Shown here one piece after another: positions 37,260 to 61,110 of a stretch of DNA of 64,000 nt. The number at the start of each line of letters is the position of its first letter. Position 1 is the stretch's first letter. The notes beneath the pieces are model-generated. The model made no database searches, had not been told where the DNA came from, and saw only the letters and a list, made by a program, of their open reading frames with translations. The stretch lies in the IMG/VR virus record IMGVR_UViG_3300025715_000009, positions 256,001-320,000 of that record, one strand, 5' to 3'. A program made the translations under genes and the position numbers. This DNA comes from a virus. Taxonomy: Duplodnaviria > Caudoviricetes.

Positions 37260-37264
37260 TAGTG

Positions 37265-37335
37265 TGCCCCATTTGGGAATCGAACCCAAGTAAATAGTTT
37301 TAGAGACTACCGCTTTACCATTAAGCAAATGGAGC
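37265..37335 (-). tRNA. tRNA-Sup (CTA), amber suppressor
   Basis: full cloverleaf; GTAGT-CT CTA AA-ACTAT. Confidence 0.85.
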
Positions 37336-42348: not shown

Positions 42349-43174
42349 GGGCTGAGACTATACCCTTCTCGCTATCACTTTCAAGCCCGTACCTTTGAGG
42401 TGCTACCCTCTCCGTTAAGCTCTTATCCACATCCTCATGGATGTCTGATAGCATGGCTGCCTTTTTTAGAGAGTGGCTTTTCTCTCGTCACAACAAGTTA
42501 ATCAACCTTCCGGTTACCGTCTACCTTGCGAGCAGTAAAGGACCGCTAAGTCCACCGTGCACCTTCCCATCAAACCCTTCCGCCTTGCGAGCTTCCAGGC
42601 TCCAGATTCTCTTTCGAGTCTGGACTTAAGCCATTTTCGCTTGTTGTCGGTCAAGACTTTTGCGTTTTCAATTGTTGGACTCGAACCAACGACCGATTGT
42701 ATTACAAGACAATTGCTCTACCATTGAGCAAAACTGAACGGGTTTCCCCTTGACCACGAGGTGCTTGACCAGTTGCTCCATATCCTTTTGAGATACGGAA
42801 TACAACACCTCGCATACATTTTACCTGCCGGCTACTTTGTGGTTTTTCAAGACCAGGTATTCCCCTGAATCTATCAAACTGCTATTAAGCACTTGTCTGC
42901 AAAGACTCGCACCTAATAACTACTGTTCTCTCTCATAGATAATCAGTTTTGCATGAAGATAATCCCTTGCGAGGAAAAGTTACTCTCACCCGGTTGGCCC
43001 TGAATAACTCTGTCTCTTCCTGATGTCTCTACAAATTCCGCTGGTAGCGAAATCATAGGAGAGTCAGCTTGCTTACATGAACTGTATTACTACAGCGGGA
43101 GGCGTCACCCTTTACCCCTTTATGATTATTGCTAATCACTATTCTTCGCCTTTCGGCAGGACCATAAGCAGCCC
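42349..43174 (-). ncRNA. GOLLD-like giant structured RNA (~826 nt)
   Basis: GC-richer region without credible ORF; 5' GGGCTG pairs with 3' CAGCCC; many GNRA hairpins; embedded tRNA; size and tRNA-cluster context fit GOLLD. Confidence 0.75.
42666..42738 (-). tRNA. tRNA embedded in GOLLD-like RNA, 8-nt anticodon loop (CU UGUA AU)
   Basis: TTCAGTT/AATTGAA acceptor; ATTGT-CTTGTAAT-ACAAT; GTTGG-TTCGAGT-CCAAC. Confidence 0.7.
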
Positions 43175-55084: not shown

Positions 55085-55110
55085 GGTGATCGGTGGGAGT
55101 TGAACCCACC
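55085..55110 (-). pseudogene. tRNA-His-like 3' stub
   Basis: GTGGG TTCAACT CCCAC CGATCAC C. Confidence 0.7.
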
Positions 55111-55159
55111 TTATATTATACTGAAATAATATCCTTTCTAAAATAATTTACAACTATTA

Positions 55160-55231
55160 GGGGTTTAGAGGGAATTGAACCCTCGACAGTGGTTCCACAG
55201 ACCACGGTTTTACCACTAAACTATAAACCCC
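55160..55231 (-). tRNA. tRNA-His (GTG) with G-1:C73
   Basis: cloverleaf. Confidence 0.9.
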
Positions 55232-55234
55232 ATG

Positions 55235-56050
55235 CTATTTTAATCCTAAACGAATTTCTTCTCTAATGATATCTTCATTGAACCATTTTATTAAAACCTT
55301 ATTTTGTTCTTCTGCTGCTTTCCATTTTAACAAATCTTTTTTTGTTGTATATCCTTTTGTTTCAATATAATAAGAATTATTAACTTTAAAATCAAACAAA
55401 TACATATGTTCTTTATTATCTTCATCTATATACACTATTCTATCTTTAGTATATTCCCAACATAAAATTTCTTTATTTTCTAACATTTTATCTAAAACAA
55501 AACATGTTCTTAATTCATATGTTCCTTGAACTTTTATGTTTTTATAGTAAAACCATTTTGTGGTTCCTCCATAAACTTTTTTACCATTCTTGTATTGTTT
55601 TTTTAATATATTAGATTGTTTATCTCTATGTTCTTGAGATTTTATTTTACATTGAAAACATAATCCAGATTTGGATTTTTTATTAATTTGTTTACCACAC
55701 TTGCAATATAAGCGTTTATATTTAGTTTTTCCCTTATTATGTGGTATTTTGCCTTTTATTTTAATTGATATTTTTAATTTTGTTTTTTCTGTATGTTTTC
55801 GGCTATTACCACAGGAATGAGAACAATATTTCCTTTCTTTTTTGTCTATATGCTGCGTTCCATCTTTTTTTATTTTTCTTTCTATTTCAAATTCTTTTCC
55901 ACATTTAAGGCATTTTTTTATTATTTTAACTCTTTGAAGAGTTAAAGAATTACTAGATTTTATATAAAGTTCTGGGTTATGTGATGCTTTATGACCACCA
56001 TATGCTGATGAGTTTTTAAATTCTTTTCCACATATTTCACATTTATACAT
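55235..56050 (-). CDS. putative homing endonuclease (Zn fingers, NUMOD3-like, PD-(D/E)XK)
   Basis: C2H2, HTEKTKLKIS, QGTYE...YLFDF...IETKGY; start at MYKCE. Confidence 0.8.
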   Translation of the reverse strand: MYKCEICGKEFKNSSAYGGHKASHNPELYIKSSNSLTLQRVKIIKKCLKCGKEFEIERKIKKDGTQHIDKKERKYCSHSCGNSRKHTEKTKLKISIKIKGKIPHNKGKTKYKRLYCKCGKQINKKSKSGLCFQCKIKSQEHRDKQSNILKKQYKNGKKVYGGTTKWFYYKNIKVQGTYELRTCFVLDKMLENKEILCWEYTKDRIVYIDEDNKEHMYLFDFKVNNSYYIETKGYTTKKDLLKWKAAEEQNKVLIKWFNEDIIREEIRLGLK

Positions 56051-56077
56051 TATATTTGTTTTATATAAAAAAATAAA

Positions 56078-56155
56078 GGTGGTCGACGGGATTCGAACCC
56101 GCATTCTTTTCAGCCTGATCCACAGTCAGGTGCATAACCGTTCTGCCACGACCAC
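56078..56155 (-). tRNA. tRNA-His (GTG) with long variable region
   Basis: cloverleaf; variable region CTGAAAAGAAT; no encoded G-1. Confidence 0.8.
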
Positions 56156-57016: not shown

Positions 57017-57021
57017 ATAAG

Positions 57022-57094
57022 CGGGCATATCTGGTTACGATCCGGAACTACAAGATTGACAGTCTTGCGTGCAGAGCCACTACACTATACACCC
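57022..57094 (-). tRNA. tRNA-Asp (GTC), atypical T loop ATCGTAA
   Basis: cloverleaf. Confidence 0.8.
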
Positions 57095-58693: not shown

Positions 58694-59050
58694 CTAAGGC
58701 TTTTCATATTTCTCCTTTAGCTTCTTTAGTAAGGCTAATTCCTCTTCCTCTTTTTGCTTTTTCATCAACTTTGCTTCAGCTCTTTTTCGCTTTCTTGCTT
58801 CAGCCTCCTTATTGCATCGAATAGCAAACTCTTCATTAGTCTCATCTCTTATTCCAAAAATGGTATAAGAGCCAGGAGCATGTTCATTATATGCATAATC
58901 ATAATCAATTAAAAATGACTTATATTTTGTTCTATCAACATCACCAATTAAAAGATTCCAGAGGTCTTCAGGAGTAGATATAGTATGTGAATCTAATCTC
59001 GAAACTGAATAGTTGTCTATTTCATCTCTTACTTCCATCTTTTCCATCAT
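58694..59050 (-). CDS. hypothetical protein
   Basis: ORF with SD. Confidence 0.7.
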   Translation of the reverse strand: MMEKMEVRDEIDNYSVSRLDSHTISTPEDLWNLLIGDVDRTKYKSFLIDYDYAYNEHAPGSYTIFGIRDETNEEFAIRCNKEAEARKRKRAEAKLMKKQKEEEELALLKKLKEKYEKP

Positions 59051-59060
59051 CTACTCCTTT

Positions 59061-59085
59061 TGCAAGATACAGGACTCGAACCTGT
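59061..59085 (-). pseudogene. 3' stub of a split tRNA (Val-like)
   Basis: ACAGG TTCGAGT CCTGT ATCTTGC A. Confidence 0.75.
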
Positions 59086-59094
59086 GGTAATACT

Positions 59095-59167
59095 TAGGGG
59101 CTGAAGGGTACGATCCTCCGACATCTACGGTGTAAACGTAGCGCTCTCCCAACTGAGCTAAGCCCCC
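59095..59167 (-). tRNA. tRNA-Val (TAC), T loop ATCGTAC
   Basis: cloverleaf. Confidence 0.88.
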
Positions 59168-59907
59168 AAATTTAAAATCAATTCTACAAATTCTTCATAT
59201 TTCTTAACTACATAAAAATTCAATTTATTCTCTTTATATAGTTCTATTTTATCCAACCATTTTTCATATGACTTTTTAAAACTTTCGTAATTCTTAACTC
59301 TATCTCTATCAATTCCATCTAATTCAATCCAAATATCTTTATCAACTAAATATATATCACTTAGTCTTGATGAATTTGGCAAATATTTATGAGGATCAAA
59401 TCTTATATTTTTATCTTCTAAGAAATTAAAACATTTTTCTTCTAAAGAAGATTGAAAATATGTTCCAACCTTAGTATATCCTTTTTTTCCAAATCCACCT
59501 TTTCTCCCAATTTCTCCAAGTCTTTTTCTTTCTTTTAACGAAGAAGCATTTTTTTTATTTACTATAGACATTGTTAATTTAAAATCTGATGAACTTCTAT
59601 AACAATCCACACAATATCCAGTTTTATTACCATATTTTAGTAATTTATTACAAGTTTTACAATATCCATATATTTTCTTTTTTTTAATATTTTTAGGTTT
59701 TTTAAGTGATAATTTGACTCCTAATGAAATTTTTCTTTTCCATTCTTCTGAGTGGACATGCCCATTTGCACAAGATCTACTACAGAATTCTCTTTCATAT
59801 TTTGGAACATTTTGAAATCCATTTTCTGATATAGTTCTAAAAACTTCAAATTCTTTTCCACACTTTTTACATATTTTATTAATTGCAATTTTATTTAATT
59901 TTTTCAT
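59158..59907 (-). CDS. putative homing endonuclease (Zn fingers, NUMOD3-like, Vsr/DUF559-like nuclease)
   Basis: CKKC..FCSRSC, HSEEWKRKIS, SSLE...SDIYL...WIELDG; stop inside tRNA-Val. Confidence 0.8.
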   Translation of the reverse strand: MKKLNKIAINKICKKCGKEFEVFRTISENGFQNVPKYEREFCSRSCANGHVHSEEWKRKISLGVKLSLKKPKNIKKKKIYGYCKTCNKLLKYGNKTGYCVDCYRSSSDFKLTMSIVNKKNASSLKERKRLGEIGRKGGFGKKGYTKVGTYFQSSLEEKCFNFLEDKNIRFDPHKYLPNSSRLSDIYLVDKDIWIELDGIDRDRVKNYESFKKSYEKWLDKIELYKENKLNFYVVKKYEEFVELILNLGA

Positions 59908-59964
59908 ATAATTATCTTATATAAACAAATCGAACCATGTGTTTTCTATATGTTATTTTTTCTT

Positions 59965-59982
59965 CAGCTGGGCTAATCTTGC
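59965..59982 (-). pseudogene. 5' stub of the split tRNA (Val-like)
   Basis: GCAAGAT-TA-GCCCAGCTG; acceptor strand complementary to the stub at 59061. Confidence 0.7.
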
Positions 59983-59988
59983 ATAATA

Positions 59989-60061
59989 CGAGCCGTGCAG
60001 GAGTCGAACCTGCCTCCACGGATTAACAGTTCGTACCCTCACCACGACGGGCCTACGACTC
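59989..60061 (-). tRNA. tRNA-Asn (GTT), divergent
   Basis: CTGTTAA loop; canonical T arm. Confidence 0.75.
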
Positions 60062-60069
60062 AAATAATA

Positions 60070-61038: not shown

Positions 61039-61110
61039 TGCAAAATATTGGATTTGAACCAATGACTTCCACCATGTCAAGGTGGCACTCTCCCACTGAG
61101 TTAATTTTGC
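61039..61110 (-). tRNA. tRNA-Val (GAC)
   Basis: cloverleaf. Confidence 0.9.

Follow-up and report, generated by a model that had tools for sequence, protein, structure and literature searches.

A nuclease gene and an intact tRNA-Val(UAC) gene nested within a broken tRNA-Val(UAC) gene: a probable homing cassette in a large phage

In the transfer RNA (tRNA) gene array of a large phage, we found a free-standing, homing-endonuclease-like gene and an intact tRNA-Val(UAC) gene lying together between the two ends of another, broken tRNA-Val(UAC) gene. The stretch analyzed, hereafter the window, comprises 64,000 nucleotides (nt; bases 256001-320000) of the 388,268-base IMG/VR virus record IMGVR_UViG_3300025715_000009, which is approximately 98% complete and has a G+C content of 29.7%. 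ARAGORN identified 39 tRNA genes in the window, all on the minus strand, and 59 in the whole genome. Very probably, a mobile cassette consisting of a leader, a PD-(D/E)xK nuclease gene, and the intact tRNA-Val(UAC) gene homed into a resident tRNA-Val(UAC) gene, whose ends remain as stubs on either side. Homing endonuclease genes usually spare their hosts by hiding in introns or inteins or by sitting between genes. The site described here would represent a third solution, available in both its “before” and “after” alleles, in which an RNA gene is destroyed and a working, sequence-divergent copy is supplied.

The broken tRNA-Val(UAC) gene and its intact counterpart

Two sister strains, represented by a Logan contig (L095) and a Joint Genome Institute (JGI) contig (L096), carry the empty site. 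In both, ARAGORN identified an intact 73-nt tRNA-Val(UAC) gene (L095 99-175; L096 17-93) between tRNA-Asn and an open reading frame (ORF) of 117 amino acids (aa), and their downstream flanks are nearly or fully identical to that of the window (100% over 971 nt for L096, and 98-99% for L095). The intact allele reads GCAAGAT-TG-GCCC-AGCGGCAAC-GGC-A-CCACG-TTTACAC-CGTGG-CATTACC-ACAGG-TTCGAGT-CCTGT-ATCTTGC-A. The window keeps tRNA positions 1-16 and everything from the variable-loop ATTACC on, and approximately 875 nt (59966-59092) replace the 28 nt GGCAACGGCACCACGTTTACACCGTGGC, which correspond to tRNA positions 17-44 and include the anticodon. Because the filled allele lacks these 28 nt, the empty allele cannot be derived from it, and the insertion is the derived state. 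The stubs are thus the two ends of one original tRNA-Val(UAC) gene that is still intact in the sister strains, and close relatives differ in whether this one locus holds the nuclease gene, the target being intact where the site is empty. An initial annotation, made from the sequence alone, had anticipated that relatives without the ORF would hold an intact tRNA-Val beginning with GCAAGAT at this place, as both strains do. It had also likened the broken gene to tRNA-Val(GAC) at 61039; the anticodon loop TTTACAC of the intact allele identifies the resident as Val(UAC), and that likeness is incidental.

All elements of the filled site lie on the minus strand. Directly 5' of it, 5 nt before the 5' stub, is tRNA-Asn (60062-59988). 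The 5' stub (59967-59982) comprises the acceptor 5' strand, nt 8-9, the D-stem 5' strand, and the start of the D loop, and is identical to positions 1-16 of the intact L095/L096 allele except at position 9, where A replaces G. The stub-side sequence GCAAGAT-TA-GCCC-AGCTG extends over 59982-59965, and its terminal TG already belongs to the cassette leader (59908-59966; 59 nt). The leader begins with this TG and an A-rich stretch, continues with a T-loop-like element ACATGGTTCGATT at 59940-59928 and a TATATAAGATAAT box at 59923-59911, and ends before the nuclease ATG. The nuclease ORF (59158-59907) encodes 249 aa, with N-terminal Cys4 zinc ribbons and a C-terminal PD-(D/E)xK domain. Its TAG stop coincides with nt 8-10 of the carried tRNA-Val, so that the first 10 nt of the tRNA overlap the ORF end.

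The carried tRNA-Val(UAC), which we refer to as type B, occupies 59095-59167 (ARAGORN 59168-59094; Rfam RF00005 59167-59095). It matches RF00005 over its full length (model positions 1-71) with 58.7 bits against a gathering score of 29, in agreement with ARAGORN and with the earlier assignment of an intact tRNA-Val(TAC) to this place. As judged from the sequence, it forms a full cloverleaf with a UAC anticodon and the discriminator A73, and its T loop is unusual (ATCGTAC, with A54/U58 swapped). An AGT spacer (59092-59094) marks the right end of the insert, and the alignment with the empty-site alleles resumes at 59091. The 3' stub (59061-59091) contains the variable loop, a complete T arm, the acceptor 3' strand, and the discriminator A; its sequence, ATTACC-ACAGG-TTCGAGT-CCTGT-ATCTTGC-A, is identical to the 3' part of the intact L095/L096 allele. 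The initial annotation had recognized its T arm and acceptor strand and placed its start at 59085; the stub really begins six variable-loop bases earlier, at 59091.

The 3' stub is an orphan T arm outside every ARAGORN call, and its acceptor strand (59068-59062) pairs with the 5' stub at all seven positions, the perfect acceptor stem that had been noticed earlier. The expected number of chance acceptor partners of this kind is approximately 0.002 per orphan T arm. An Rfam scan of the stubs reported no partial tRNA, as they are too short for the model. Since tRNA positions 17-44 have been replaced by the insert, the stubs are dead wreckage, and the carried gene is the phage's sole tRNA-Val(UAC), the only one found in a tRNA scan of the 388-kb genome. 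As first suggested, the cassette breaks a tRNA gene yet supplies a tRNA for the same amino acid, and the two have the same anticodon and clearly different sequences.

The perfectly complementary acceptor halves and the intact T arm could also be expected if the insert were intron-like, or if the outer halves formed a working tRNA after splicing or trans-joining. We give this explanation practically no weight: the missing 28 nt include the whole anticodon arm, which excludes an intron or a split tRNA, and the stubs joined together would make 47 nt without an anticodon. In addition, a scan of 58950-60000 for intron families returned no match even at E-values up to 10, the nuclease ORF has its own start and leader and lies outside any self-splicing intron or intein, and the substitution at position 9 of the window stub is found neither in the intact allele nor in L005, a further filled-site contig that has G at this position.

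Repeat-rich tRNA arrays are a plausible source of misassembly, and one contig (L093) breaks exactly at the stub boundary (ATTACC). However, the same junctions are present in JGI and Logan assemblies of different samples (L005, L090, L091, and L092) as well as in the 388-kb record. The layout is therefore not an assembly artefact, and we regard a chimeric contig as exceedingly improbable.

The filled site also provides a signal of mobility. L005, which represents a more distant strain, has the same nest with the same junctions as the window. The two cassettes differ at only 3 of 876 positions (99.66% identity), whereas 32 differences are found in the next 501 nt (93.6% identity; Fisher p = 9e-12). 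The presence of the cassette is thus discordant with the relatedness of the flanks: L096 has an identical flank and no cassette, while L005 has a diverged flank and the cassette. A near-identical cassette in a flank of about 94% identity points to recent horizontal spread by recombination. Such a transfer predicts a right-hand crossover in or at the 3' stub, and the first flank difference between the window and L005 is located 9 nt past this stub.

The GenBank phage collection yielded no relative of the region beyond generic tRNA matches, and neither an exact search of IMG/VR with both stub sequences nor a search of IMG/VR with a 33-nt probe specific for the intact allele returned a match. An IMG/VR search with the flanking 118-aa ORF and the RNA-ligase gene found no close relative (best identity 44%). 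The downstream 117-aa ORF (P0213) is present on 20 contigs, and two variants of it are those on L095 and L096.

A nuclease family linked to tRNA-Val(UAC) genes

Pfam returned only sub-threshold zinc-ribbon matches to the nuclease, and the PHROGs match covers only its N-terminal part. Homologs are numerous (73 in a 90%-identity collection, and 184 clusters at 50% identity), and nearly all of them are unnamed metagenomic proteins. An alignment of 44 sequences shows the conservation of two Cys4 ribbons and of a block GRKGGFGKKGYT...E...PHK.IPNSSK.SDIYL...WIELDGI.REK. In this alignment, E156, E195, and G198 do not vary at all, and H173, D184, D197, and K205 hardly do. The AF2 model has a predicted local distance difference test (pLDDT) score of 89, which exceeds 90 in the C-terminal domain (residues ~136-249). 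This domain matches TnsA (Z 8.7 over 110 aligned residues), I-Bth0305I (Z 8.3 over 89 residues; Foldseek probability 0.98), VRR-NUC (Z 7.8), and Vsr (Z 7.7), and is predicted to adopt a restriction-endonuclease-like fold of the Vsr/TnsA-like branch of PD-(D/E)xK enzymes. The initial description of a zinc-finger, Vsr-like endonuclease agrees with the conserved zinc ribbons and, at the level of the fold, with the structural matches. A PDB profile search against I-Bth0305I (3r3p) gave a marginal E-value of 0.9. Residues conserved in the family (E156, H173, D184, E195, and D197) are candidates for the composite EDxHD motif, but could not be mapped with confidence onto its Vsr-equivalent positions. 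Membership among the GIY-YIG Seg enzymes was considered and rejected, as Pfam returned no GIY-YIG match and the catalytic domain, of the PD-(D/E)xK fold, lies at the C terminus.

The family was examined in 77 loci from IMG/VR, metagenomes, and Logan, of which 54 unique loci contain the nuclease domain. ARAGORN identified tRNA-Val(UAC) directly beside the nuclease gene in at least 35 of these 54, and further Val(UAC) neighbors were recognized by eye in L007, L026, L037, and L070. Val(UAC) accounts for 18 of the 35 called downstream neighbors and for 19 of the 35 called upstream neighbors, compared with 10.8% of all tRNAs in these loci (p ~1e-9). When Val(UAC) is downstream, the ORF end abuts or overlaps the tRNA 5' end (-17 to +33 nt); when it is upstream, the distance is 37-124 nt. 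The nuclease family is therefore habitually linked to tRNA-Val(UAC) genes, and we classify it as a new, uncharacterized family that is, as far as gene neighborhoods indicate, specific for them.

In most loci, the region before the nuclease ATG is also conserved and resembles part of a tRNA, from the variable loop through the 5' half of the T stem to the T loop (e.g., AAGTC-ATGAG-TTCGAAT), followed by an A/T-rich, TATA-like box. Of 50 family loci, 33 contain a GTTCRA/TTCGAW motif in the 75 nt that precede the ATG, compared with 10.7% of background windows (p ~1e-20). In the window, the leader element ACATGGTTCGATT is close to the ACAGGTTCGAGT of the target.

A few family loci depart from the common pattern. 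In L057, L063, and L065/L066, nuclease members are directly upstream of tRNA-Thr(UGU) rather than Val(UAC), and in L065 a fragment resembling a 5' stub precedes the ATG; these members may be a retargeted branch. Elsewhere (L011-L014, L039, L045, L047, L048, L052, L058, L061, and L077), the Val(UAC) genes adjoining the nuclease are 84-89 nt long and share a conserved unpaired insertion GAGACGAGAAGTATAAT in the variable region. Val(UAC) genes of at least 81 nt make up 14 of 45 in family loci, compared with approximately 10% of other class I tRNAs. We considered such long variable regions as evidence for resistance to cutting and discarded them, as their enrichment in Val(UAC) is not specific enough.

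Recurrence of the nested layout

The nested layout is found in two other family loci. In L025, where the nuclease is 52% identical to that of the window, GCGGGAT-TA-GCTC-AGTTGGTTAGAG is followed by a leader, the nuclease gene, an intact Val(UAC), 29 nt, and the 3' stub GGTC-ATAGG-TTCGAAT-CCTAT-ATCCCGC-A, and the acceptor halves GCGGGAT/ATCCCGC pair at seven of seven positions. In L027 (nuclease 38% identical), GGGGGTA-TC-GCTT-AGCTGGTTTTA-AAGC-A precedes a leader, the nuclease gene, an intact Val(UAC), and the 3' stub ACTGG-TTCGACT-CCAGT-TACCCCT-A, with acceptor halves (GGGGGTA/TACCCCT) that form six Watson-Crick pairs and one G-U pair. By chance, the 25 orphan T arms examined would together yield only about 0.06 stub pairs of this kind. 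The layout arose independently in these unrelated phage contigs. All three Val nests lack the anticodon arm, and the loss may also include part of the D arm.

The tRNA types are distributed differently among these loci. L025 and L006 carry a type A tRNA (GYCAGRT-TG-GCYC..CATTAYC-ACAGG-TTCRAGT-CCTGT), the type that is broken in the window, and the 5' stub of L006 resembles the type B carried in the window. As the types are swapped between loci, the roles of the tRNAs are interchangeable between lineages. A comparison of the carried and broken tRNAs in the three Val nests identified no consistent difference in T-loop recoding or variable-loop length.

Similar arrangements for other amino acids are present in the genome of the window. 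The whole record was scanned for orphan T arms, and one segment with such arms that lies outside the window (L089; G000:C1:362800-365700, minus strand) was read for nests. In the Met nest of this segment, GGTGAGA-TA-GCCAAGTTGGTAAGGCAGCAC precedes the gene of a PD-ExK nuclease of 228 aa and an intact Met(CAU), after which comes a 3' stub that ends in ..TCTCACC-A; the halves pair at seven of seven positions. The Tyr nest consists of a 5' half that extends through the GUA anticodon loop, a leader ending in GGGGGTTCGAAT, an HNH nuclease gene (PF01844, 42.8 bits), an atypical Tyr-like tRNA that ARAGORN missed, and a 3' stub ending in ..CCGGCCC-A; the acceptor strands of its stubs are GGGTCGG/CCGGCCC. 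Over its first 50 residues, the HNH protein shares 72% identity with the zinc module at the N terminus of a PD-type member of the family, which indicates domain shuffling. A partial nest for His is located within the window (55086-56155, minus strand), where a gene for a paralogous zinc-ribbon/PD-ExK nuclease (55235-56050) lies between two dissimilar tRNA-His(GUG) genes. The upstream one is 78 nt long and has an abnormal 12-nt variable region, and the second is followed by an orphan His-type 3' stub (GTGGG-TTCAACT-CCCAC-CGATCAC-C; 55109-55086), whose acceptor strand is complementary to the first bases of the upstream His gene (six Watson-Crick pairs and one G-U pair). The nuclease is a different one at each of the Val, His, Met, and Tyr loci of the genome.

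Another repeated arrangement with orphan T arms was observed outside the window, at 350665-352457 of the genome (minus strand), where three repeat copies start with AAGTCCAGACTACAACATTGAAAGATGG and each ends in an orphan T arm. These may be intron-bearing or otherwise interrupted tRNA genes.

A possible homing mechanism and its relation to known systems

We infer from the sequence comparisons that the nuclease cuts the resident allele and that the carried allele resists cutting. In the proposed mechanism, a co-infecting phage without the cassette would suffer a double-strand break when the nuclease cuts its resident-type tRNA-Val gene; since every Val nest has lost the anticodon arm, the cut would probably fall in or near that arm. 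The break would be repaired from the cassette-bearing genome, with the outer parts of the tRNA gene (the stubs) and the flanks serving as homology, and the nuclease gene and the spare tRNA gene would be copied together. The left junction (...CCCAGC|TG...) could be the outcome of a crossover in the D-loop motif CAGC(TGG) of the donor stub. Valine decoding would be kept, and the carried tRNA would escape cutting, as its D loop, variable loop (5 vs. 7 nt), and T arm differ from those of the target; the T arms are GGAGG-ATCGTAC-CCTTC in the carried tRNA and ACAGG-TTCGAGT-CCTGT in the target. The T-loop-like element of the leader may be a half-site retained as an operator or as a patch of homology, by analogy with SegB and I-TevI, and the autorepression of I-TevI is the model for the operator idea.

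Several observations weigh against this reading. The resident and carried anticodon arms are identical at 15 of 17 nt, and recognition there alone would therefore leave the carried copy unprotected. The swapped roles, with type A carried in L025 and L006, mean that there is no fixed sensitive or resistant tRNA type. The first insertion would have required an illegitimate or microhomology join, unlike ordinary homing. The mobility signal comes from one Logan contig, L005, and the strains have in common a 38-nt segment that is longer than the k of 31, so that a chimeric join in L005 is possible. Finally, the sister strains have another tRNA-Asn allele directly upstream of the stub, and the tRNA-Asn of the window (59988-60062) is strongly different from that of L095 (11-96), though the downstream flanks are 98-100% identical; either the exchanged tract extends leftwards, or the Asn gene was replaced separately.

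SegB of phages T4 and T6, a free-standing GIY-YIG enzyme of the tRNA cluster, recognizes the T-loop motif GGTTCRANTCC, cuts beside this motif within tRNA genes, and drives the inheritance of neighboring tRNA genes (PMC2330249, PMC13096335). It is the closest known case, and by analogy the cassette would work like SegB without being a member of its family. In both, a free-standing nuclease gene lies within a phage tRNA array, varies in its presence among close relatives, shows microhomology between its end and a tRNA 5' end, and is accompanied by neighboring tRNA genes as it spreads. By contrast, the enzyme described here has a predicted PD-(D/E)xK fold instead of a GIY-YIG domain; segB sits between tRNA genes without splitting any; SegB prefers tRNA-Asn but cuts many tRNA genes, whereas the present family is tied to tRNA-Val(UAC); and no same-anticodon replacement nested in a broken target has been described for SegB.

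The nuclease might therefore be viewed as a relaxed, SegB-like cutter of tRNA genes, or as a passenger gene, with the nest being a by-product of array shuffling between tRNA-Val paralogs, and without allele-specific homing or any special resistance of the carried copy. This would fit the cutting of many tRNA genes by SegB via a common T-loop motif and the segmental rearrangements that it promotes, the generic T-loop motif of the leader, the swapping of tRNA-Val types between loci, and the many orphan 3' stubs in the genome, some of which have no nuclease gene nearby, such as the one after Phe(GAA) at genome position 364344. However, the tRNA beside the family genes is Val(UAC) far more often than any other, which a generic cutter would not yield, the nuclease gene and the tRNA are joined within a few bases in most loci, and every nest in the genome combines a broken and an intact tRNA of the same anticodon. 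We consider such undirected shuffling unlikely, and favor the homing of the cassette into the resident tRNA-Val(UAC) gene.

Other systems resemble individual aspects of the cassette. I-Bth0305I, an “EDxHD” enzyme, likewise is of phage or metagenomic origin and combines a Vsr-like PD-(D/E)xK catalytic domain with an N-terminal modular DNA-binding region, which in some homologs includes NUMOD3, but it resides in introns or inteins of protein genes such as recA, whereas the present nuclease gene is free-standing in tRNA genes (PMC3239194, PMC2677866). A full-text literature search returned SegB, the T-even Seg and Mob enzymes, I-Bth0305I, and group I introns in tRNA genes, and no description of a cassette of nuclease and tRNA lying within a tRNA gene that has the same anticodon; we classify the finding as a new form of free-standing (intronless) homing. 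In fungal mitochondria, the insertion of a free-standing endonuclease gene displaces the end of another gene, and the endonuclease gene brings along a second copy of that end. As in the phage, a mobile nuclease disrupts a useful gene, replaces the broken part, and leaves a dead remnant, but the fungal targets are protein-coding and only their 3' end is replaced in frame, whereas here a whole RNA gene is supplied and both old ends remain. The synthetic cleave-and-rescue (ClvR) gene drive uses Cas9 and spreads by killing non-carriers, not by copying itself into a break. It shares with the cassette a nuclease that destroys a needed gene and a linked, recoded copy that is not cut; ClvR, however, is engineered, while the resistance of the phage's carried copy is presumed.

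A broader interpretation, which we consider possible but doubtful, makes the cassette a natural homing element of the “cleave and rescue” type that is directed at RNA genes. Its T-loop-like leader and the dead tRNA ends around it would then act as portable homology arms and an operator, allowing entry into the tRNA-Val(UAC) gene of any co-infecting phage regardless of its neighbors. The shuffling of zinc modules onto PD-ExD, PD-ExK, and HNH domains would have given rise to related elements at the Val, His, Met, Tyr, and Thr genes, which together would drive the turnover of tRNA sets in large phages.

Homing of this kind would explain why the tRNA arrays of large phages contain orphan fragments of tRNA genes and duplicated isoacceptors, would offer a mechanism for rapid tRNA replacement, and would be a natural counterpart to engineered cleave-and-rescue drives. 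A nuclease family whose short target, the tRNA-Val(UAC) gene, can be predicted could also be of interest to those working with site-specific nucleases. For annotation, tRNA fragments beside nuclease genes should not be recorded as split or intron-bearing tRNAs.

Two further observations concern tRNAs of these phages. The T loop ATCGTNN instead of TTCGANN is found in several of them, including the carried tRNA-Val, Asp(GUC) at 57021-57094, and a Gly tRNA in L077. The swap of positions 54 and 58 keeps the pair possible but removes the GGTTCGA motif, and could represent recoding against nucleases that target the T loop. In addition, the window contains, at 37264-37335 and 42666-42738, a tRNA with a CUA anticodon, which ARAGORN called Pyl and which probably suppresses TAG, and another whose anticodon loop (tgta) has 8 nt. 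The CUA anticodon prompted us to consider a genome-wide recoding of TAG, which found no support, as reading TAG as sense extends long frames by just 8%; the nuclease ORF therefore terminates at its own TAG.

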